Origin: Spirochaetia bacterium
GTDB lineage: Bacteria; Spirochaetota; Spirochaetia; SZUA-6; Bin103
Length of the DNA stretch: 64,000 nt
Direction of reading: 5' to 3'
Assembly (NCBI GenBank): GCA_965262935.1
Contig: OZ253572.1
Span: 6,462,066 to 6,526,065 of the forward strand
Shown here piece by piece: positions 1,562-39,699 of the stretch. Positions within the stretch are counted from its first letter, which is position 1; each line of letters opens with the position of its first letter. The notes below the pieces were generated by a model. The model did not search any database. It saw only the letters and a program-made list of their open reading frames with translations, and was not told the origin of the DNA. The position numbers and the translations under genes were made by a program.

Positions 1562-2456
1562 CACCTTCCGGCTCCTGCTCGCGTTCACCACTGCCCGGCT
1601 CGGCAAGACGCCGTCGCAATTGCTTCTTACCGATCTCGACGTGACCGTGATCGACGCATTCCTCAACCATCTCGAACATGACCGTGGCAATAGCGCGCGC
1701 ACCAGGAACGCCCGTCTGGTCGCGATTCATTCTCTGTTCCGCTTCGCCGAGCTGCGCCATCCTGATCACGCCTACATGATCCAGCGAGTGCTCGCGATCC
1801 CGGCGAAGCGACAGCAGCGCACCGAAGTGAGCTTTCTGACCCCTATCGAGGTCGATGCGTTGCTCGCAGCCCCCGATCGTACTACGCGCATCGGTCGGCG
1901 CGACCATGCGTTGCTCGTCCTGGCTGTGCAGACCGGCCTGCGTGTTTCCGAACTGGTCGGCCTACGCCGCTGTGACGCCCATCTCGACCGTGGCGCTCAC
2001 GTACGCTGCCACGGCAAAGGACGCAAAGATCGCGTCACGCCGCTTGCCGTCCAGACGGTAGCGGTGCTCCAGGTGTGGCTCCGCGAACTCGCTGGCGGCC
2101 CGCACACCGCGCTGTTTCCCAGCCAGCTCGGCCGTCCCCTCAGCCGTGACGCGGTCGAGCGTCTGCTGGCCAAGCACACCCGCGCTGCCGTGCTCGCGTG
2201 CCCGTCCCTGGCCACCAAGAGGGTCTCACCACATGTACTGCGCCACACTGCGGCGATGCGGCTCCTGGAGGCGGGCGTTGATACTTCCGTGATCGCACTG
2301 TGGCTCGGTCACGAGAGTGTTCAGACAACCCAGGTCTATCTCCATGCCCACCTCGCACTCAAGGAACGCGCTCTGGCCAAAACTGCTCCGGCCCACACCA
2401 CTCCCGGTCGCTATCGTCCACCCGACGCACTGCTCGCCTTCCTGGAAGCCCTGTAA
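1512..2456 (+). CDS. tyrosine recombinase (XerC/D-like), complete. Third gene of the trio.
   Basis: N-terminal AAYRDTFRLLLAF core-binding motif. Catalytic boxes GLRVSE (Arg), HGKGRKDR (Lys), HVLRHTAA, GHESVQTTQVYLH (Tyr). TTG start per ORF track. Homology-like sequence continues a few codons upstream, but no start codon is found there. Confidence 0.8.
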   Translation: MLGEREASPHTVAAYRDTFRLLLAFTTARLGKTPSQLLLTDLDVTVIDAFLNHLEHDRGNSARTRNARLVAIHSLFRFAELRHPDHAYMIQRVLAIPAKRQQRTEVSFLTPIEVDALLAAPDRTTRIGRRDHALLVLAVQTGLRVSELVGLRRCDAHLDRGAHVRCHGKGRKDRVTPLAVQTVAVLQVWLRELAGGPHTALFPSQLGRPLSRDAVERLLAKHTRAAVLACPSLATKRVSPHVLRHTAAMRLLEAGVDTSVIALWLGHESVQTTQVYLHAHLALKERALAKTAPAHTTPGRYRPPDALLAFLEAL

Positions 2457-2641
2457 CTATGCCGACCCCTGCGGCGCGTTCACCGCCGTTGCACCTGCTG
2501 GAACACACCGAATTCCCGCCCGCCTCGATCACGCGGCATATTCGGTCGGTCGGCATAGGAACTGCACCTTCAGATCCAGCGTCTGCTATTGCCCGCCAAG
2601 TGAGAGTTCCTGGTTTTGTACAACCCCGCCAGGGGGCGTAG

Positions 2642-3352
<711 letters not shown>

Positions 3353-3676
3353 TAGGGGCGCCTTGCAACACGCGGGCGTCACACTACTGGGAGGGCTGTC
3401 ATGCTCGAAGAACTGGTTTCGATACTGGCTATTGGGGTCGCCGCGGCGGCGCTGTTCGTGCCCCGGATAGGATCCGCGCGCGATTCGATGCGAACGATGA
3501 CTCGGAATCTACCGGGTCACGCCGGAGATGCTCTCTTGCGCTCCGGGACCTTACTTCACAAGAAAGCGTACCTGACAGCGGCCCGCGCGCGGACGCCGCG
3601 GAGGAGAGAAGACAGGTGATGAGCACTCGAATGAGATGCATTCCAAACGGCCACACCGCCGAAGAGGAGGCCTCTG

Positions 3677-4171
3677 GTGGCAAACGATGACCGGAGTCTC
3701 GTACCTGTCTCGTCCTACCTGCGCGATCTCTACCAGTTGATCAGCCTACTCCTTTCAGACCGGAGGGTGGCCGGGATCGCAGACTTCAAAGAGCTTTCCG
3801 AGGTCAACCATGAGGCCGAGGTGAATCGCCTATTGATATGGATCGCAACTGCGACGCGCCAGTTCCTTGACATGGACGAACGTAGCATCGGAAAATCCAT
3901 GGCCAACGTAGCGTGCGGACAATACTGGAACACGTATACCGGCGACCCGGACAAGGACAACAGACAAGCTCTGCGATTTCGACAAGCATGCAATATCGTC
4001 ATTCATGCGGTGGAGATCACGTCATACGATCCTGATCGTGGCTACCATAGAGGCGTGATAACGATTCGGGGCACGCGACGACGGCAATTCGGATTCCAGG
4101 CTAACCGAGCAGCACTTGATTTTGTGCAGTTCGCGAAGCTATGTATCAGATTGACCAGGGAGTTGGAGTAG
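3677..4171 (+). CDS. hypothetical protein (164 aa) in a low-GC island
   Basis: GTG start preceded by GAAGAGGAGG. The ORF has a clear local GC drop and no strong competing ORF. No domain recognised. Confidence 0.55.
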   Translation: MANDDRSLVPVSSYLRDLYQLISLLLSDRRVAGIADFKELSEVNHEAEVNRLLIWIATATRQFLDMDERSIGKSMANVACGQYWNTYTGDPDKDNRQALRFRQACNIVIHAVEITSYDPDRGYHRGVITIRGTRRRQFGFQANRAALDFVQFAKLCIRLTRELE

Positions 4172-4178
4172 GACGACC

Positions 4179-4400
4179 ATGGCGACCAGCAGGACTACGT
4201 ACAAGTACCACTACAAGCTTGGCAACAGGATTGTGCACACCGGCATCACCAAGGATATCGACCGCCGGGAGGCCGAACATCGACGCCACGAGGGGTGGGA
4301 GCGCGGCCACATCAAACAGGTCGGCGTCCGCACCACGCCGGAGGCGGCGCAAGAGTGGGAGCAAGATCAGCGCAGTCAGGGCAAACCAACCGGACCGTAA
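4179..4400 (+). CDS. small protein (73 aa) with a GIY-YIG-like N-terminal motif
   Basis: GGAG RBS 8 nt upstream of the ATG. YKYHY...IVHTGIT...DIDRREAEH resembles GIY...YIGxT...NLxRRxxEH. Length is at the lower limit for that fold. Confidence 0.4.
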   Translation: MATSRTTYKYHYKLGNRIVHTGITKDIDRREAEHRRHEGWERGHIKQVGVRTTPEAAQEWEQDQRSQGKPTGP

Positions 4401-5540
4401 CGACGACTCGATCCCCGCGCCACCGAACCCGACTTGCTGTATGCCGTCGAGCGCAAGGCCGGCGATATTCCCGCGTGGCTGACGCCGGACCCCTGTTGGT
4501 CAGCCTTGTGCGCCCTGATCGGACGCTTCGATGGCAAGCGCGCGCGCCCCGCGGGGCACGGCCTGGTCTGGTTCTCAGCCCCCTGGGCTTTCGCAAGACC
4601 CCCTTTACCCGCGAGTTGACCGTGCGCGAGCGCTTCCCGCTCGATCCGCAGGCACAGGTCGCCGCCGCACTCGCCGAGCCTGATCGGATGGAGCGACCTG
4701 TGGCGCGACTACGACCGCCCCGAGCAAGATGGCCACCTACCTGAACTACCCCGGCCCCATCCTCAACCTGCCCACCAAGGCATCCCGCTCAACCCTCGGC
4801 TCGGATTGAACGGCCGCTGACGCGTACCGCGCGGGTCACGCTTTGCAGCATAGGCGAACCACCCCGGACTTGCCGTGGTGATTCATGCAAGCAAGCAATG
4901 GCCACAGCCGAAACTGCCCCAACCCAGCAGAGCGACAAGACCGTCACGATTGAAGTGAATGCCCACAAAGTCAAGATGCCAGCGGGCCGATCACACCAGG
5001 AGCCCAGTTCGAGCAGCGCCCAGCGCTTCAAGTGTCCCGGCGCAACAACCTCGCCCTGAGAGACAACAGAGTCGAGACGGCGGCATTCGACGATGAACTC
5101 ACTCTTATCGCACCCATCGCACCCGTAAAGGGTTGACCGCTCGCCACCTATGCTCAGGCAGCGACCGGCGCACTCGTGCGTGTCGGTGGCGGCGCTGCAT
5201 CCAGACCGGAGCGGAACGGTTCGCGTGGTGCACCGACGAGCGTATCAGACCGACCTCGCTACGACAAAAAGCTGCCCACAGTATCCAGCCGGAAGAAAGG
5301 CTGCTCAAATACCCGACTATCTTCCGCCGGACACGAAGTGCGATTTCGGCTCGCCTTGCGGATATCAGCCCGCAACTCGAGCGGCGGAGCCATCTCCCAT
5401 ATATTACAAACGGCGTGTGTTGGACCGAGCCGGACTGCGCCGACCGAAGGCGCGCGCCGCGAAACCCTCGGCGTTGGTGATGCTGGCGCTACTGCCGGTG
5501 GCCCGGATAACGTACAGTCCCTGGCGCCCGGAATGGACGA

Positions 5541-5888
5541 TCACGGAACCTCCTCGCCGTTGACGGCCAGAATGTCGAACTCCCAGCGCCGCTCCCCATA
5601 GTTCTTCTTCGCATTGGTTATCGTGTGGTCCACTGCGATGCCGCGCTGTTGCAGCAGTTTCACGAGGTCGCCCTCCACCAGGGACTCCATCAGCTTCCCC
5701 CACTGCCCGTTGAACAGCTCGTCGAGTTTGCGCAGGCGCAGGTCGGTCTCCTGCATGCGGCGGTCGGTGTCCTGACCGAGTCGCTTCAACACCTGGTCGG
5801 TTTCTTTCCGGCTCTCCGCTACCTCGCGCAGGATGTTCCAGATCTCCTCCGGCGTCGCCGGGTCCCGATGTCCGTTCTGGTCAGCCAT
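5541..5888 (-). pseudogene. DUF3782-like PD-(D/E)XK family protein, 3'-truncated. It retains only the N-terminal coiled-coil and the start of the nuclease core.
   Basis: ...GQWGKLMESLVEGDLVKLLQQRGIAVDH...ERRWEFDILAVNGEEV then a stop. Full-length relatives continue for another ~80 aa. A paralog lies at 12927..13640. Confidence 0.45.
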
Positions 5889-5901
5889 GCCGCAACCCGG
5901 C

Positions 5902-8900
5902 CTACGGGAGGTTCAGGGGTATGTCGACCTCGCTCTCCGGTATGCGGTACGCCCGGTAGCTCCAGGCATCCTCACCGGCCACGCGCATGTTCATCTCCAG
6001 GTGCGCAGTGCCGGTTACGGGGTTGACCTCGCTCACCGCGATTGTCTTGTCCAGCGCGACCGTGCGGCCGGTGGCGCTGCCGCCCCAGCTAATCAGCCAA
6101 TGCACGCTGCCGACGAAGTCTTCGAGCACGTGCACGCCGCCCCGGTAGGGGAAGTAGCCGTGCGTGGCAGGCAGCCGGTATTCGCGCTCGTACTCCGCCT
6201 GCGTTCCGGACGATATGTCGTACTCCACCGCGCGCGAGAACGCGTTAGAGTCCTTCCTGGGGCCGATGCACTGTACGCCGTTGTCGTACATTACGACGGT
6301 GTTGGTAGAGGTCAGCGTGACGTGGTGCGGTCCGCAGAACTCCTCGACGACGGCATTATCCGAATGCTCGACCAACTCCAGGAACTCGGTCGTGGAACTC
6401 TCCGGCGGCGCGGTGCCGCCGAGCTTCCACTCGACAGCGCCGGTCGTTCCGTCGATCCGCAGCACCTGCGAGCAACCGCGGGACGACACCACGAAGTCCC
6501 CGTCTGCCAGCAGTTGCAGCGAATTGAATTGAGCATAGCCCGGCGGATACGACAACCCACCTCGGAGGAACATCCCGACCTTGCAATCGGTGCCCCACTG
6601 GAGCACGTCTCTATGGGTCCAGGAGTTCCACGTGAACTCGGACACGCCGATCGCACCCGCGCTCCTGCGCTGGATGGCCGAGTCGGCAACCTGTTCGGTT
6701 TCGGTTCCTCCGTGGTCCGAGAAATCGCGCGGCTCGTCATCGTAGTAGGACAGCATCGCGTAGTCCCCGTCAGCGGCAATCTGAAAGTCGTGGCCATCGG
6801 TCTGCGACAGCGGCGACACCGTGGTGAGGGTAGCGGTCACTTCGAGCCGCTCGTTGAGCAGGTCTATCTCCCAGTTTCCGAACGGAGAGTCGTTGACGTT
6901 GAACACCTCCCTTCGGGCCACCGAGAAGCGGCTGTTGCCGTGGGGCTTGAAGTCCATCACCCAGAAGTTGGTATCCGTGAGCAGACGATGGAACCGCGGC
7001 ACGCCATTGTTGTCGACCATCGCCATGAACATGGTGCGGCTGCTGTAGCTGCCGTAGGCTGGCGTGAGGAGCAGCAGCCCGTCCTTGACCTGATCGGTCC
7101 TGGTCAGGATTTCGATGGTCGGGAAGGCGGCGGGCAGGCAGTGCACGACGTAGGTCCTGGTGTCGCCGGCGTCACTGACTTCGATCGCCAGGTCGTGGTC
7201 GCCGCCGACCGCGACACTTGCGTTCAGGATCCCGGTAGTGGATACCACGTTGTCGGCGGTATCGGCGCGCAGCAGCGTGAGTTGCGCGCCGTCGCGCCCG
7301 GTCGCTGCCGCGACGGTGAGCGTCGGCGAAGTGTTGCAGGTCAGCGCGTAGTGCAGGGTGTCGGCGTCGAACGTCGGGTACATGGCGCCGCCGCCGGTCA
7401 CCGCCAGGGATGAGAGCTCAAGCGCAGTCGAATCCAAGGGGTCCTCGGGGTCGACGGGATCCACCAGGTCCACCGGGTCCGTGGTAGTCGTATCGCCATC
7501 GTCGGCGATCGTGCCGGTGGCGCTGGCGTCGGACACGGTGGCGCCCGCGGGGTTGCTGAGCGTAACCGTGAACGTCTCGGTTTCCTCGGCGGTGCTGTCA
7601 TCCAGAATCGCTACATTGACGGTCGCCGTCGTGGCGCCGTCCGCGAACGTCAGCGTGCCGTTCGCGGACGTGTAGTCCGCTCCGGAGGTGGCGCTCCCGT
7701 CCGCGGTCTCGTACGCCACCGTGACCGTACCTCCGCTCGCCGGATCGAGTCGCACCACGAACGGCATGCTGCCGTCTCCCGAGCCCTCCGTCAGACTCCC
7801 GTTGCCGATGCTCAGCTCCGGTAACTGGTCGTTGTCCGCGATCGTCCCGGTTCCCTGCGCGGTGGCCACGGTCGCGTTCACCGCCGCCCGCAGGGTGACC
7901 GTGAACTGTTCGGACGGCTCGTCCAGCGTGTCGTCGACTACCGTTACTGCGATCGTCCGGCTCGTGGTGCCGGCACGAAACGTCAGCGTGCCGCTCGCGG
8001 CCGTGTAGTCCGAACCGGCCGCGGCGCTCCCGTCCGCCGTCGTGTACTGCACCGTGACCGTGCGTCCGCTCGCCGCGTCGAGCCGCACCACGAACGGCAT
8101 GGTGCCGTCACCCGAGCCCTCCGTCAGGCTGCCGTTGCCGATGCTCAGCTCCGGTGCCTGGTCGTTGTCCGCGATCGTCCCGGTTCCCTGCGCCGTGGCC
8201 ACGGTCGCGTTCACCGCCGCCCGCAGGCTGACCGTGAACTGTTCGTCCGGCTCGTCGATCGCGTCATCGGCAATCGGCACCGTCACCGTCCGCACCGTGG
8301 TGCCCGCGCCGAACGTCAGCGTACCGCTCACCGGCGCGTAGTCGCTCCCGCCCGTGGCAGTCACGTCCGCCGTCCCGTATTGCACCGTCACCGTGCGCCC
8401 GCTCGCCGGTTCGAGCCGCACCTCGAACCGCATGCTGCCGCCGCCCGTGCCCTCGGTTAGCCCGCCGTTGCCGATGCTCAGCCCAGGCAGCGCATCCTCG
8501 TCCTCGATCCGCCCTGTCGCCGTCAGCGTCGCCCCGCCGCCGGCAAGTTGCGCGTTGTCGGCGTTGCGCAGTGTCACCCTGAACACTTCGGTGTCCTCGT
8601 TCATGCTGTCGTCGTTCACGGTCACTGCGACCGTCTGCGCCGCCGTCGACCGCGCCGGGAACCGCAGCATGCCGCTCGCCGGCGTGTAGTCCACCCCCTC
8701 GGTGGCCGTGTCGCCGCTCGAGTCGGTGGCGTAGTCCACGGTCACGACCTCGTCGCTGGCCTGGCTCAGGGTCACGGCAAACACTATCCGGCGCGCCTGC
8801 TCGGAGGCCTGCGCCGGCGCCATCGCCAGCGTCGGTACGTCGTCCTCCACGATGATCACCCTGACCACCGGGCCGGTTACGCCGTCGTAGCCGCCGCCGC

Positions 8901-9774
8901 TCGCCGTGTGCGCAAGCTCCACCGCGATGTCGGCCAGCGCATCGATGTCCTGCTCCGCCGTCAGCGTCACCTGCCGAGCGTCTCTCCACTGCGCTGGCGC
9001 GAACACGAACTGCTCCGGGGCTATGGTCAACTCCGGTGCATCCGCCGCGGTCACGGTTACCGGCGCCGTCGGCCGTGACCCGAGCCGTACCTCGTAGCTC
9101 GCGCTTTCTCCCTCCGTCACGAACAGCTCCAGCGGCTCGATCGCCAGCGCACGGGCGTCATCGTCCTGAATCGTTCCGGTCGCCGTTGCCGACGCCAGTG
9201 TCGCCCCTTGTGGGTCGCTGAGCCGCACGGTCAGGGTCTCACCCGCCTCGTCTACCTCGTCGTCCACGAGCCGCACCTCGATCCGCTGCGCCGTGGTCGA
9301 CTCGGCCGGGAATGTGAGCCGGCCGCGCGCCGCCTGGTAGTCCGCTCCCGCCTTCGCCGTGCCCTCCACGGTGTCATAGGCCACCGTGACCGCGGCGCCG
9401 GCCGTCCCGCTCAGGCTCACCGTGAAGCGCAGCACGCCGTCAGACTCTGCTGCGCCTGCCGCCGCTATCGCCAGCACCGGCGGCCCTTCCGCCGGCGCGA
9501 CGGGCGTGCCGCCCGGCTGGTCCACCGGCGTGCTCTCCGGCTGCGCGCTGTCCGGCTGTTTCGCGGCCTCGACGTGAGCCATCTGGCACCCCGCCAGCGT
9601 CAGCGCCAGCGCCAGCGCCAGCAGTAGCGGGACAGCGGCCGACCACAGTGCTGCAGGCAGGAGCAGGCGCCGCGCTGCCAGCCGAAACGGCGACCAATCT
9701 GCCGAGCCGCCGCCGGGTGTCTGTGCGGCGCTCTGGGCGCTCTGCGCGCTCTGGCTGGAGACTTTCTGCAACAT
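5902..9774 (-). CDS. large lipoprotein (1290 aa). Contains ~7 Calx-beta repeats, a cadherin-like beta-sandwich, and a C-terminal arylsulfotransferase (ASST)-like beta-propeller domain.
   Basis: Lipobox LTLAGC. Repeated G.L.F..G.T...V.V.I.DD..DEP.E.F.V.L units with near-identical copies. A LSSLAVTGG...HYAL motif. C-terminal ~500 aa carry GHDF, WNSW and FCGPHHV motifs shared with the paralog at 10474. Confidence 0.8.
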   Translation of the reverse strand: MLQKVSSQSAQSAQSAAQTPGGGSADWSPFRLAARRLLLPAALWSAAVPLLLALALALTLAGCQMAHVEAAKQPDSAQPESTPVDQPGGTPVAPAEGPPVLAIAAAGAAESDGVLRFTVSLSGTAGAAVTVAYDTVEGTAKAGADYQAARGRLTFPAESTTAQRIEVRLVDDEVDEAGETLTVRLSDPQGATLASATATGTIQDDDARALAIEPLELFVTEGESASYEVRLGSRPTAPVTVTAADAPELTIAPEQFVFAPAQWRDARQVTLTAEQDIDALADIAVELAHTASGGGYDGVTGPVVRVIIVEDDVPTLAMAPAQASEQARRIVFAVTLSQASDEVVTVDYATDSSGDTATEGVDYTPASGMLRFPARSTAAQTVAVTVNDDSMNEDTEVFRVTLRNADNAQLAGGGATLTATGRIEDEDALPGLSIGNGGLTEGTGGGSMRFEVRLEPASGRTVTVQYGTADVTATGGSDYAPVSGTLTFGAGTTVRTVTVPIADDAIDEPDEQFTVSLRAAVNATVATAQGTGTIADNDQAPELSIGNGSLTEGSGDGTMPFVVRLDAASGRTVTVQYTTADGSAAAGSDYTAASGTLTFRAGTTSRTIAVTVVDDTLDEPSEQFTVTLRAAVNATVATAQGTGTIADNDQLPELSIGNGSLTEGSGDGSMPFVVRLDPASGGTVTVAYETADGSATSGADYTSANGTLTFADGATTATVNVAILDDSTAEETETFTVTLSNPAGATVSDASATGTIADDGDTTTTDPVDLVDPVDPEDPLDSTALELSSLAVTGGGAMYPTFDADTLHYALTCNTSPTLTVAAATGRDGAQLTLLRADTADNVVSTTGILNASVAVGGDHDLAIEVSDAGDTRTYVVHCLPAAFPTIEILTRTDQVKDGLLLLTPAYGSYSSRTMFMAMVDNNGVPRFHRLLTDTNFWVMDFKPHGNSRFSVARREVFNVNDSPFGNWEIDLLNERLEVTATLTTVSPLSQTDGHDFQIAADGDYAMLSYYDDEPRDFSDHGGTETEQVADSAIQRRSAGAIGVSEFTWNSWTHRDVLQWGTDCKVGMFLRGGLSYPPGYAQFNSLQLLADGDFVVSSRGCSQVLRIDGTTGAVEWKLGGTAPPESSTTEFLELVEHSDNAVVEEFCGPHHVTLTSTNTVVMYDNGVQCIGPRKDSNAFSRAVEYDISSGTQAEYEREYRLPATHGYFPYRGGVHVLEDFVGSVHWLISWGGSATGRTVALDKTIAVSEVNPVTGTAHLEMNMRVAGEDAWSYRAYRIPESEVDIPLNLP

Positions 9775-38002: not shown

Positions 38003-39157
38003 ATGATAAAAAGACTGTACGTCGACAATTACAAGTGCCTCGTCAATTTCGACCTGCCGTTACAAGAGTTGTCCCTGCTGCTAGGACCGAGCGGTACTGG
38101 AAAGACCTCTGTGCTCGACATCATTTTCGCCTTGAGAAGGCTTCTCTCTGGGGATGCACGAGTAGCCGATCCTGACATTTTCCCTGACCGAACCCTCACC
38201 TGTTGGCAGAGTCGTGAACTACAGGTCTTCGAGATTCAGGCGTTCTTGCAATCAGAGACATTCACCTATCGACTCGAAGTGGAACATCAGCGGTCCGCGC
38301 ACTTGTCGCGTATCAGCCGCGAAAAGCTGGAGGTGGAGGGGACACCGTTATTCGATTGTGTGCAAGGGGAAGTGCAACTCTTTCGCGACGATCCCAGTGG
38401 TAGGACAACCGAGGGACCAGTCTATAGCACAGACTGGAGGGAGTCGGCTCTGGCCAGAGTCGCTCCGGGGCGCTCCAATGAACGCCTTACCCGCTTCCTT
38501 GAGTATATGGGACGAGTGCTCGTGTGCGGCGTCAATCCTCCTGTTCTGCAGGCGGAATCGACTGAGGAGAACTCGGTGCTGCAACGAGACGCCCGAAACT
38601 TTGCCGATTGGTACCGGCACACGCTGCAGGAACGCCCGGACCTGTATTTCGAACTCAAGAAGACACTGACCGATGTGATCGGCGCCGGATTTGACGGGAT
38701 CCGGCTTGAGAGAGTTGGCACGGAAACCCGCGCATTGATGGTTGCGTTCGCCAATCAAGCAGACACGGATTCCGGCCTAACCTACCCATTGCGTTTTGAC
38801 CGCATTTCGGATGGCCAGCGCGCGCTTATCGTGTTGTACAGCCTCATTCATCTGGCAGGAGGGGGAGGATACACGTTATTCCTTGATGAGCCCGAAAACT
38901 ACGTCGCACTAAGGGAGCTTCAGCCATGGCTTATGAGTCTTGAGAACGCCTGCGGAGACGTCGTATCGCAAGCCGTAGTGAGTTCTCATCATCCCGAATT
39001 AATCGACTATCTGGGATACGAGAGCGGCATTATGTTGCAGCGCGAAACATCCGGAGTTATCACGGTGAGCCGCCCACAGACTAAGTCAGGAGACGGGACG
39101 GAAGATACAATCGGTCTGAAACTCTCCGAATTGGTCGCCAGAGGTTGGGAACAGTGA
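38003..39157 (+). CDS. ABC-type ATPase of the AAA_21/AAA_15 (OLD/AbiLi/RloA-like) class. Putative abortive-infection ATPase.
   Basis: Walker A LLGPSGTGKTSVL. Signature/Walker B region ISDGQRALIVLYSLIHL...YTLFLDEPENYV. H-loop SSHHPEL. Lower GC than flanks. Stop overlaps the next gene start. Confidence 0.8.
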   Translation: MIKRLYVDNYKCLVNFDLPLQELSLLLGPSGTGKTSVLDIIFALRRLLSGDARVADPDIFPDRTLTCWQSRELQVFEIQAFLQSETFTYRLEVEHQRSAHLSRISREKLEVEGTPLFDCVQGEVQLFRDDPSGRTTEGPVYSTDWRESALARVAPGRSNERLTRFLEYMGRVLVCGVNPPVLQAESTEENSVLQRDARNFADWYRHTLQERPDLYFELKKTLTDVIGAGFDGIRLERVGTETRALMVAFANQADTDSGLTYPLRFDRISDGQRALIVLYSLIHLAGGGGYTLFLDEPENYVALRELQPWLMSLENACGDVVSQAVVSSHHPELIDYLGYESGIMLQRETSGVITVSRPQTKSGDGTEDTIGLKLSELVARGWEQ

Positions 39158-39699
39158 GCAGACGGGTCCAGCTCGTCGTATTGTGCGAAGACCAACAGCA
39201 GCGGACGTTCATACTCCAGTTCCTCAAGAAAACAAGAAGGAACGACCCTGTGCTCCGTGTAGAGATGTGTCCCAGAAACTGCGGATCAGCCGAGCAGTAT
39301 GTACGGAAACGCTTCCCGAAAGAAGTTGCCGAACACCACCGGAGACACGTGTCTCAAGCGCTGATCGTAATGCTTGATGGCGACAACTGCGGCGTCGCTG
39401 CACGCATCGCTGAGCTTGAGAAAGCGTGCCGTAAGGCCAAAGTACGCGCCGGACATCCGGAAGAAGGAGTCCTGGTAGTCGTGCCGACATGGCGAATCGA
39501 AACGTGGTTGGCGTATCTCAACGGCGAAACCGTTGACGAGTCGAGGCGGAACTATCCGCACTTACTCCGTCCACGAGATTGCGGCCCCCATGTGACTCAA
39601 CTCGTCGATATGTGTCAGAGACGTCAGTTGCGGGAACCTGCACCGGATTCCCTCGTAGCGGCTTGCACTGAATACCGCCGCTGGATTGCTAACGTTTGA
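39145..39699 (+). CDS. DUF4276/RloB-like small protein, translationally coupled partner of the ATPase
   Basis: TTG/GTG start overlaps the ATPase stop (GTGA). N-terminal VQLVVLCEDQQQRTFILQFL and C-terminal VVVPTWRIETWLAYLNGE resemble the VEG.TE...F and E.W motifs recalled for DUF4276. Confidence 0.55.
   Translation: MGTVSRRVQLVVLCEDQQQRTFILQFLKKTRRNDPVLRVEMCPRNCGSAEQYVRKRFPKEVAEHHRRHVSQALIVMLDGDNCGVAARIAELEKACRKAKVRAGHPEEGVLVVVPTWRIETWLAYLNGETVDESRRNYPHLLRPRDCGPHVTQLVDMCQRRQLREPAPDSLVAACTEYRRWIANV

Follow-up and report, generated by a model that had tools for sequence, protein, structure and literature searches.

Layout of the locus

A stretch of 64,000 nucleotides from the genome of a Spirochaetia bacterium (contig OZ253572.1, positions 6,462,066 to 6,526,065; the whole stretch is called the window below, with position 1 as its first letter) contains two small genes on the forward strand, open reading frame (ORF) A and ORF-B. 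This analysis deals with that pair, namely ORF-B, a very compact protein of the GIY-YIG type, and ORF-A, a member of an unannotated family. The features of the locus were as follows, both ribosome binding sites (RBSs) being read from the sequence.

3294-3676, + strand: upstream leader, putative promoter region; indel-rich and kept only in the two closest relatives
3401-3619: ORF of 72 amino acids (aa) in the leader; not conserved, probably no gene; the relatives' copies are broken by indels
3664-3670, + strand: RBS of ORF-A, GAGGAGG, 6 nt 5' of the GTG
3677-4171, + strand: ORF-A, GTG start, 164 aa
4165-4173, + strand: RBS of ORF-B, GGAGTAGGA (GGAG/AGGA), spanning the ORF-A stop codon TAG at 4169-4171
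4179-4400, + strand: ORF-B, ATG start, 73 aa

The original prediction, which was made from the window alone, had described two same-strand ORFs with good RBSs and a gap of 7 bp, and the coordinates, the RBSs and the distance from the end of ORF-A (4171) to the first base of ORF-B (4179) were all confirmed. The position of the ORF-B RBS over the ORF-A stop codon is an arrangement typical of translational coupling. Homologs of ORF-A started at the equivalent MA(N/x)... position.

The leader was shared with few relatives. Window positions 3294-3549 matched the homologous locus L022 at 96.9% and positions 3310-3449 matched locus L021 at 81%, and the three copies differed by indels of 144-283 bp. 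In more distant relatives the homology to the window began only at about 3707. The 72-aa ORF had no Pfam match and was not matched by the hidden Markov model (HMM) of a small membrane protein, protein C, that is described below. The sole consensus promoter match in 3200-4700 was located at 3867-3896, within ORF-A and outside the leader, and no terminator matches were present in the same interval. A scan of 2400-5900 against Rfam gave only sub-threshold chance matches (CRISPR-DR16, E=0.16).

The GC content of the window was 0.687 overall, with a standard deviation of 0.054 across windows of 495 bp. The sharp drop from a background of about 70% that had been proposed for the pair held for ORF-A, whose GC content was 0.537; only 0.6% of windows of the same size were as low or lower. 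ORF-B had a GC content of 0.622, and the background near the pair was 0.62-0.72 and not a flat 70%. The dip is mainly that of ORF-A. In every host both genes were on average lower in GC than their flanks, by 12 points for ORF-A and 4.6 points for ORF-B, and the GC content of both followed that of the host (r=0.75-0.79). The low GC content is therefore shared by the whole family and is not a property of this insertion alone.

Conservation and selection

The first database searches, with a cut-off of E<=1e-3, yielded 42 homologs of ORF-A and 64 of ORF-B, so that conservation in other genomes is established for both. The ratios of nonsynonymous to synonymous substitution rates (dN/dS) between the window and its relatives were 0.17-0.40 for ORF-A and 0.08-0.57 for ORF-B. 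Mean column identity was 78% for ORF-B, with 22 invariant columns among 41 sequences, and 52% for ORF-A. ORF-A and ORF-B are conserved coding genes and not chance ORFs. The homologs and the dN/dS values therefore refute the explanation of the low-GC stretch as a decayed intergenic relic with spurious ORFs. That explanation would suit the surroundings at 2457-5900, which are a mosaic of gene fragments, but it is opposed by homologs in many phyla under purifying selection, by confident structure models and by the conserved RBS and spacing, and its probability is practically nil.

ORF-B is a minimal GIY-YIG-type protein

The motif YxY...TGIT...DIDRREAEH, from which a GIY-YIG-like protein had been proposed, was present in ORF-B and nearly invariant in 41 homologs. 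No match to ORF-B was obtained in Pfam (E<=1), NCBIfam or PADLOC, and two homologs carried the NCBI name "GIY-YIG nuclease family protein". The ORF-B family profile found one sequence in the PDB, the UPF0213 protein BH0048 (1zg2), at E=0.09. In the alignment with 1zg2 the pattern [H/Y]-T-G-x-T-x-D-x-D-R-R-x-x-x-H and a W-E pair lined up. The ORF-B fold agreed with the GIY-YIG core, beta-beta-alpha-beta-alpha, with a three-stranded sheet packed by two helices.

The first box ("GIY") is represented by Y8 and Y10, each present in at least 90% of the 41 homologs (Y-K-Y-H-F-K). In the second box ("YIG") G22 is invariant, and the position of the tyrosine is taken by H20 in at least 90% ("V-H-T-G"). 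Few members (P0098, L067) have kept the tyrosine, and H20 aligns with the "Y-T-G" of 1zg2. R29, R30 and E61 are invariant and align with the D-R-R and W-E of 1zg2. A putative active site would be made up of Y8/Y10, H20 (where the YIG box has its tyrosine), R29/R30, H34 and E61. ORF-B ends 12 residues past E61, and it has neither a conserved asparagine after E61 nor an extra domain.

A phylogenomic study of the superfamily assigned 1zg2 and 1ywl to the prokaryotic Slx1 family, a "minimal variant" of the domain without auxiliary domains or the C-terminal asparagine; proteins of the UPF0213 family are widespread and encoded on chromosomes (PMC1564403). The architecture of ORF-B is exactly that of this minimal Slx1/UPF0213 type. 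Membership of ORF-B in the GIY-YIG superfamily is supported by fold and motifs, not by sequence statistics, and within this known superfamily ORF-B represents a new subfamily of very compact proteins. We infer that it has nuclease activity.

ORF-A belongs to an unannotated family

As had been noted from the window, ORF-A has no recognisable domain; no domain was found in Pfam, NCBIfam or PADLOC, and profile searches against PDB sequences gave nothing. A profile search of 1.84 billion representatives returned 339 relatives. With a wider search the family grew to at least 1383 clusters (90% identity), every one named "hypothetical" and without a Pfam domain, from Proteobacteria to one Nitrososphaeraceae archaeon. 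In an alignment of 84 diverse members H110 alone was invariant, while R61, G81, A104, C105 and N106 were kept in at least 90% (motif A-C-N-x-I-I-H-A). The 84 members gave no recurrent match to Pfam or NCBIfam, and 21 of them matched phrog_18838, a phage family of unknown function. ORF-A is a member of this large uncharacterised alpha/beta family. Its predicted structure begins with two long helices, followed by a beta hairpin, the helix with the motif, a sheet of three strands and a C-terminal helix.

Four distant relatives of ORF-A (21-26% identity) were examined, and ORF-B was nearby in none of them. Three (L106, L109, L110) were located among housekeeping genes, and the Bradyrhizobium copy L104 stood beside an integrase gene. 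Further ORF-A-like genes were seen on plasmids. One, on Burkholderia contaminans plasmid pB1701 (L118, 3932-4483), follows directly after a cluster of PAAR, VRR-NUC nuclease and type VI immunity genes. Another, on a Rhizobium etli plasmid (L119), follows a DUF2513 gene and overlaps an unknown gene of 159 aa. A common downstream partner of the distant ORF-A-like genes was considered and rejected; the 159-aa genes of Bradyrhizobium and Rhizobium were mutually unrelated and had no Pfam match.

Pairing of ORF-A and ORF-B is one-sided

Occurrence of the pair was determined by a scan for ORF-B in one genome per GTDB species, which gave 141 loci, and the best 80 of these were screened by HMM. ORF-A was located upstream of ORF-B in 22 of the 80 loci and protein C downstream in 12, while 46 had neither; in these 46 loci no ORF-A was present within 5 kb of ORF-B. 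Every ORF-A of this subfamily that was examined directly preceded an ORF-B of 73-74 aa (L001, L002-L009, L012-L022). The same was true of 6 of 6 additional metagenome loci, which had been reached by way of ORF-A sequences of only 33-39% identity. Homologs of the pair were thus adjacent, and often overlapping, in many genomes, as the original prediction had suggested checking. The spacing between the two genes in homologous loci was about -70 to +14 nt, commonly a 13-nt overlap, and the pairwise distances of ORF-A and ORF-B were correlated (r=0.80, 435 pairs). The pairing is real and the dependency is one-way: ORF-A was never seen without ORF-B in this subfamily, and ORF-B was often seen without ORF-A.

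Stand-alone copies of ORF-B had a median dN/dS of 0.12, with motifs and catalytic residues intact. The genes upstream of them were mixed (transketolase, glyoxalase, transporter, RNR, ThiF, EVE, and AAA_15/21 ATPases). In the ORF-B tree all copies linked to ORF-A fell into one clade, with copies lacking ORF-A scattered among them. Four genome pairs (L020/L054, L037/L044, L053/L051 and L002/L045) shared a near-identical ORF-B and at least 1.5 kb of downstream flank, with ORF-A in one and not in the other, and in these the homology stopped 0-52 bp from the ORF-B start. Remnants of ORF-A, either about 85 bp of its 3' end or a truncated ORF-A, were present at some of the loci without it. ORF-A has therefore been lost repeatedly while ORF-B persisted.

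In a sister clade without ORF-A, ORF-B is directly followed by protein C, a conserved protein of 55-65 aa with one transmembrane helix and an acidic amphipathic tail (LQIISIFMAVIGVALPALIAIVGFVYIR..ERIDNLADQVDQLWDR).

About 5210-5450 in most loci: protein C (L080, L082, L084, L086, L088, L089, L092-L094, L096, L098, L099)
2781-4994 of L037: fusion of a long N-terminal array of tetratricopeptide repeats (TPR) to ORF-A, directly upstream of ORF-B; also found in P0127

The TPR fusion suggests that ORF-A can be joined to a module for protein interaction or sensing.

The original prediction had regarded the two genes as a possible nuclease-based toxin/immunity pair. As a classical toxin-antitoxin (TA) or toxin-immunity pair, the GIY-YIG nuclease ORF-B would be the toxin, and ORF-A, encoded upstream, would serve as antitoxin or immunity protein. 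The layout agrees with this: the two small genes run in one direction and overlap or are barely separated, conservation is lower in the upstream gene (52% versus 78%), and the neighbourhoods at L012-L019 and L031-L034 are rich in TA genes. In addition, the distant ORF-A-like gene of the Burkholderia plasmid is located right after a type VI secretion system VRR-NUC effector gene and its immunity gene. The supposed toxin, however, was alone in 46 of 80 loci under purifying selection with intact motifs, and ORF-A was lost repeatedly at the same site next to a near-identical ORF-B. No antitoxin-type DNA-binding domain (helix-turn-helix [HTH], ribbon-helix-helix, AbrB or Phd-like) was found in the 84 ORF-A members with Pfam and NCBIfam or in the ORF-A model, and neither a known antitoxin or immunity domain nor a PADLOC match was obtained. 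The one-way dependency together with the alternative partner C therefore does not fit an ORF-B toxin neutralised by ORF-A, and such a pair is decidedly unlikely.

The dependency could also be reversed. ORF-A would then be the effector, possibly a degenerate HEPN-like helical bundle with C105, N106 and H110, ORF-B would be its neutraliser or co-factor, and the lone ORF-B genes would be orphan "antitoxin-like" remnants. HEPN-domain proteins are a possible relative of ORF-A, but the HEPN motif Rx4-6H was not found in it; the spacing from R102 to H110 is Rx7H, and R102 is less than 90% conserved. A reversed dependency is given little probability.

The most divergent ORF-B (59% identity; L010/L011, 6001-6225) was located between DUF3800 and PLDc_2 genes, without ORF-A.

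Horizontal spread and neighbourhoods

The ORF-B tree mixed Latescibacterota, Gemmatimonadota, Acidobacteriota, Nitrospirota, Gamma- and Alphaproteobacteria, Binatia, Poribacteria, Verrucomicrobiota, Spirochaetia and Nitrospinota. More than 10 phyla were represented among the metagenome-assembled genomes (MAGs) with the module, and many of these genomes are associated with sponges or corals. MAG labels other than Poriferihabitaceae and Spongiihabitans presumably also stem from sponge studies. Those two taxa have been reported from sponge holobiont assemblies (PMC12859430, PMC12988363).

The closest copies to the window were L021 (95.8% over 3594-4419) and L022 (93.5% over 3643-4507). The flanks differed among these three close copies, and in distant relatives the homology was limited to the two ORFs (3707-4402). 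A search for terminal inverted or direct repeats, attC-like sites or other boundaries around the cassette gave only short repeats at chance level, and no conserved flanks or target sequences were found across loci. Several genomes contained more than one copy, for example OZ242311.1 with L033 and L041; the same applied to L066/L067 and L064/L084. Duplicate modules were arranged as follows.

L056: A-B-A-B
L057: A-B-B-B
L116: convergent B
L078: two B, 4.4 kb apart
L066, L087, L100: further tandem or nearby duplicates

The mixed-phylum tree, the differing flanks and the low GC content support the pair as a horizontally mobile unit, and this part of the earlier view of the pair as horizontally acquired cargo was borne out.

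ORF-B could itself be a selfish gene resembling a homing endonuclease, with ORF-A as a hitch-hiker. Its strong conservation across phyla, the multiple copies and tandem arrays (L056, L057, L066, L116) and the break of homology between related genomes right at the ORF-B start codon would agree with this, and an established class of GIY-YIG homing endonucleases is free-standing (PMC1564403). On the other hand, the 73 aa of ORF-B comprise only the catalytic core and lack the C-terminal DNA-binding domain that I-TevI and the Seg enzymes need for target recognition. The loci have neither conserved flanking target sequences nor terminal repeats. Relatives in phage genomes were not found either, the scan of viral contigs for ORF-B gave only one weak match at 38% identity, and the Slx1-type branch is not the homing branch (PMC1564403). 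A homing-like element is very improbable.

The neighbours in several lineages included RES/Xre, Gp49/HTH, VapC, PDDEXK_9, DUF222, AbiJ_NTD4 and AAA_15+DUF4276 genes, and further IS21/ISAZ013, a HipA N-terminal domain protein, DUF3800 and PLD. In raw counts, defence, TA or insertion sequence (IS) genes were neighbours in about 5 of 8 distinct annotated contexts, and about 4 of 47 loci had a gene for a PtuA/AriA/AbiLi-like ATPase upstream of ORF-B. Many other loci had metabolic genes alone as neighbours. As to the proposed defence pair, several loci were rich in TA and defence genes, and neither protein was matched in PADLOC-DB v2.0.0 (E<=1).

At L054, L034 and about two more loci, an AAA_15/AAA_21 ATPase gene (PtuA-, AriA- or AbiLi-like) ends 37-47 bp before a stand-alone ORF-B. 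This layout recalls the ATPase-plus-nuclease defence pairs Septu and PARIS.

The two genes might also be ordinary accessory genes without a role in conflict, ORF-B being a YhbQ/UPF0213-like repair or structure-specific nuclease and ORF-A an unrelated operon neighbour. In many ORF-B loci the flanking genes are metabolic or housekeeping ones (for example those for DnaJ, RNR, transketolase, glyoxalase and a transporter), 3 of the 4 distant ORF-A relatives examined are located amid housekeeping genes, and the chromosomal, widespread UPF0213 family (PMC1564403) would be in line with such a role. Against it stand the patchy, phylum-mixing distribution, the genomes with multiple copies and a GC content below that of the host. 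The stop/start overlap and the co-divergence (r=0.80) argue for a functional link, and TA, IS and defence genes recur as neighbours. This explanation is unlikely, and if it were true the pair would merely be a lineage-specific operon of two small accessory genes.

Interpretation

We favour, with a confidence that falls somewhat short of even, the reading of ORF-B as an autonomous minimal nuclease of the Slx1/UPF0213 type and of ORF-A as its coupled but dispensable accessory subunit. ORF-B would work alone in many genomes as a stand-alone GIY-YIG nuclease domain. In one sub-lineage ORF-A would have become translationally coupled to ORF-B and would now be co-inherited with it, and ORF-A would bind the tiny nuclease and regulate or target it. 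The unit of about 0.75 kb (0.8-1.2 kb with the leader) moves horizontally between phyla, appears to be especially common in sponge-associated bacteria, and tends to occupy variable regions with TA, defence and mobile-element genes. Its place in such regions points to a role in genetic conflict or in the processing of foreign or branched DNA rather than in core repair. Both the physical interaction of ORF-A with ORF-B and this biological role are what we infer from genomic context.

Several observations weigh against this reading. All support for an interaction comes from the order of the two genes and their co-divergence. In ORF-B the second tyrosine of the canonical motif is replaced by histidine ("HTG"), and the protein is below significance against both the Pfam GIY-YIG profile PF01541 (no match at E<=1) and the PDB profile (E=0.09), so that its catalytic competence is only putative. 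ORF-A has no recognisable fold or active site, which makes "accessory subunit" a default reading. Many ORF-B loci and most of the examined distant ORF-A relatives are located amid housekeeping genes, so that the conflict or defence flavour is not general. Finally, PADLOC matched neither protein, and no relatives were present in annotated phage or plasmid collections.

A bolder interpretation, which is conceivable but rather doubtful, is that ORF-B forms the core of undescribed small modular conflict systems, alone or together with ORF-A, TPR-ORF-A, the 60-aa membrane protein or ABC/OLD-type ATPases. Such systems would be spreading through phage-rich sponge microbiomes across more than 10 phyla, and ORF-A would be a new nuclease-regulating or sensing domain.

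Comparison with known systems

The prokaryotic Slx1/UPF0213 proteins BH0048 (PDB 1zg2) and EF2693 (PDB 1ywl) are among the closest known proteins to ORF-B, and we take YhbQ of E. coli to be a minimal GIY-YIG protein of the same type. Compared with these proteins ORF-B is shorter (73 aa), has histidine in place of the YIG-box tyrosine and falls below the Pfam and NCBIfam thresholds; it is also mobile, occurs in several copies and is operonic with ORF-A in one clade. In its logic the pair may be compared to eukaryotic Slx1-Slx4, where Slx4 activates Slx1, although Slx1 has a RING domain, Slx4 is unrelated to ORF-A, and ORF-B works without ORF-A in most genomes. PD-T4-3 (PDB 9u75), a single-protein GIY-YIG anti-phage restriction enzyme, differs from ORF-B in its 248 aa and extra specificity regions, and no PADLOC model, that of PD-T4-3 included, matched ORF-A or ORF-B. 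Type II TA modules resemble the pair as co-directional, translationally coupled, mobile small operons among TA loci. Unlike in these modules, the supposed toxin ORF-B usually occurs without ORF-A, and ORF-A has no antitoxin-type DNA-binding domain. Neither the A-B operon nor the variant of ORF-B with protein C corresponded to a PADLOC defence-system model, and no paper on either was found in literature searches.

If the favoured reading is true, the smallest known type of GIY-YIG nuclease, whose function in bacteria is poorly understood, would be a mobile gene that recruits interchangeable partners. The operon would then also be the first functional handle on the unannotated ORF-A-like family, whose clusters (at least 1383) include phage-family and plasmid members. 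The pair would also be an added candidate in the pool of accessory or conflict genes common to sponge symbionts.

Surroundings of the pair in the window

The original prediction had placed the pair beside a recombinase trio and a disrupted gene, and both were found upstream of it.

111-908, + strand: first Phage_integrase recombinase of the trio
704-1561, + strand: second Phage_integrase recombinase
1512-2456, + strand: third Phage_integrase recombinase
2744-3382, - strand: truncated FGE-sulfatase-like gene; 2760-2903 matches part of the intact gene of L021 (288 aa) at 91% identity

The three recombinases of the window were compared by tblastn with 119 fetched loci, and a match was obtained in L022 only. 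The L022 protein, a tyrosine recombinase, was 27-37% identical to those of the window and was located on the other side and strand of the pair. L021, the closest copy, had none within 8 kb. In this scrambled region the pair thus lies next to the trio without being its cargo, and in this respect the earlier view did not hold. The trio, which is RIT-like (recombinase in trio), appears degenerate. The N-terminal part of its first gene is in another frame (10-243 versus 111-908), the second ORF covers only positions 3-86 of the 172-position Phage_integrase profile, and the third (314 aa) is the sole intact-looking member.

The FGE-sulfatase gene is intact and downstream of the pair in L021, and it is a remnant upstream of the pair in the window. 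Its homology stops at 2760, near the trio, as if cut by insertion of the trio. Within the mosaic of fragments, window positions 4574-4678 match, inverted and at 98% identity, a piece of an AAA_22/AAA_25 gene of L022. Positions 5541-5888 (- strand) encode a 115-aa fragment similar to the C-terminal part of CARF-PD-(D/E)xK / Csx1 models (PADLOC E=1.6e-6). A repeat protein of 1290 aa is encoded at 5902-9774 (- strand) by DNA with about 64% identity to Calx-beta genes of L021. The Calx-beta genes are located upstream of the pair in L021, but the related gene of the window is downstream and inverted, which implies a local rearrangement around the cassette.

A second low-GC two-gene cassette was present at 38003-39699 (+ strand). 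It consists of a gene for a 384-aa P-loop ATPase of the ABC/OLD-like type, with the Walker A motif GPSGTGKTS and the motif LFLDEPE, and an ORF of 184 aa that it overlaps by 13 nt. The cassette resembles defence pairs of an ATPase and a small partner. Equivalence to the AAA_15+DUF4276 pair of L021 was considered and rejected, the similarity not being significant. Another low-GC spot is located near 24.2 kb.

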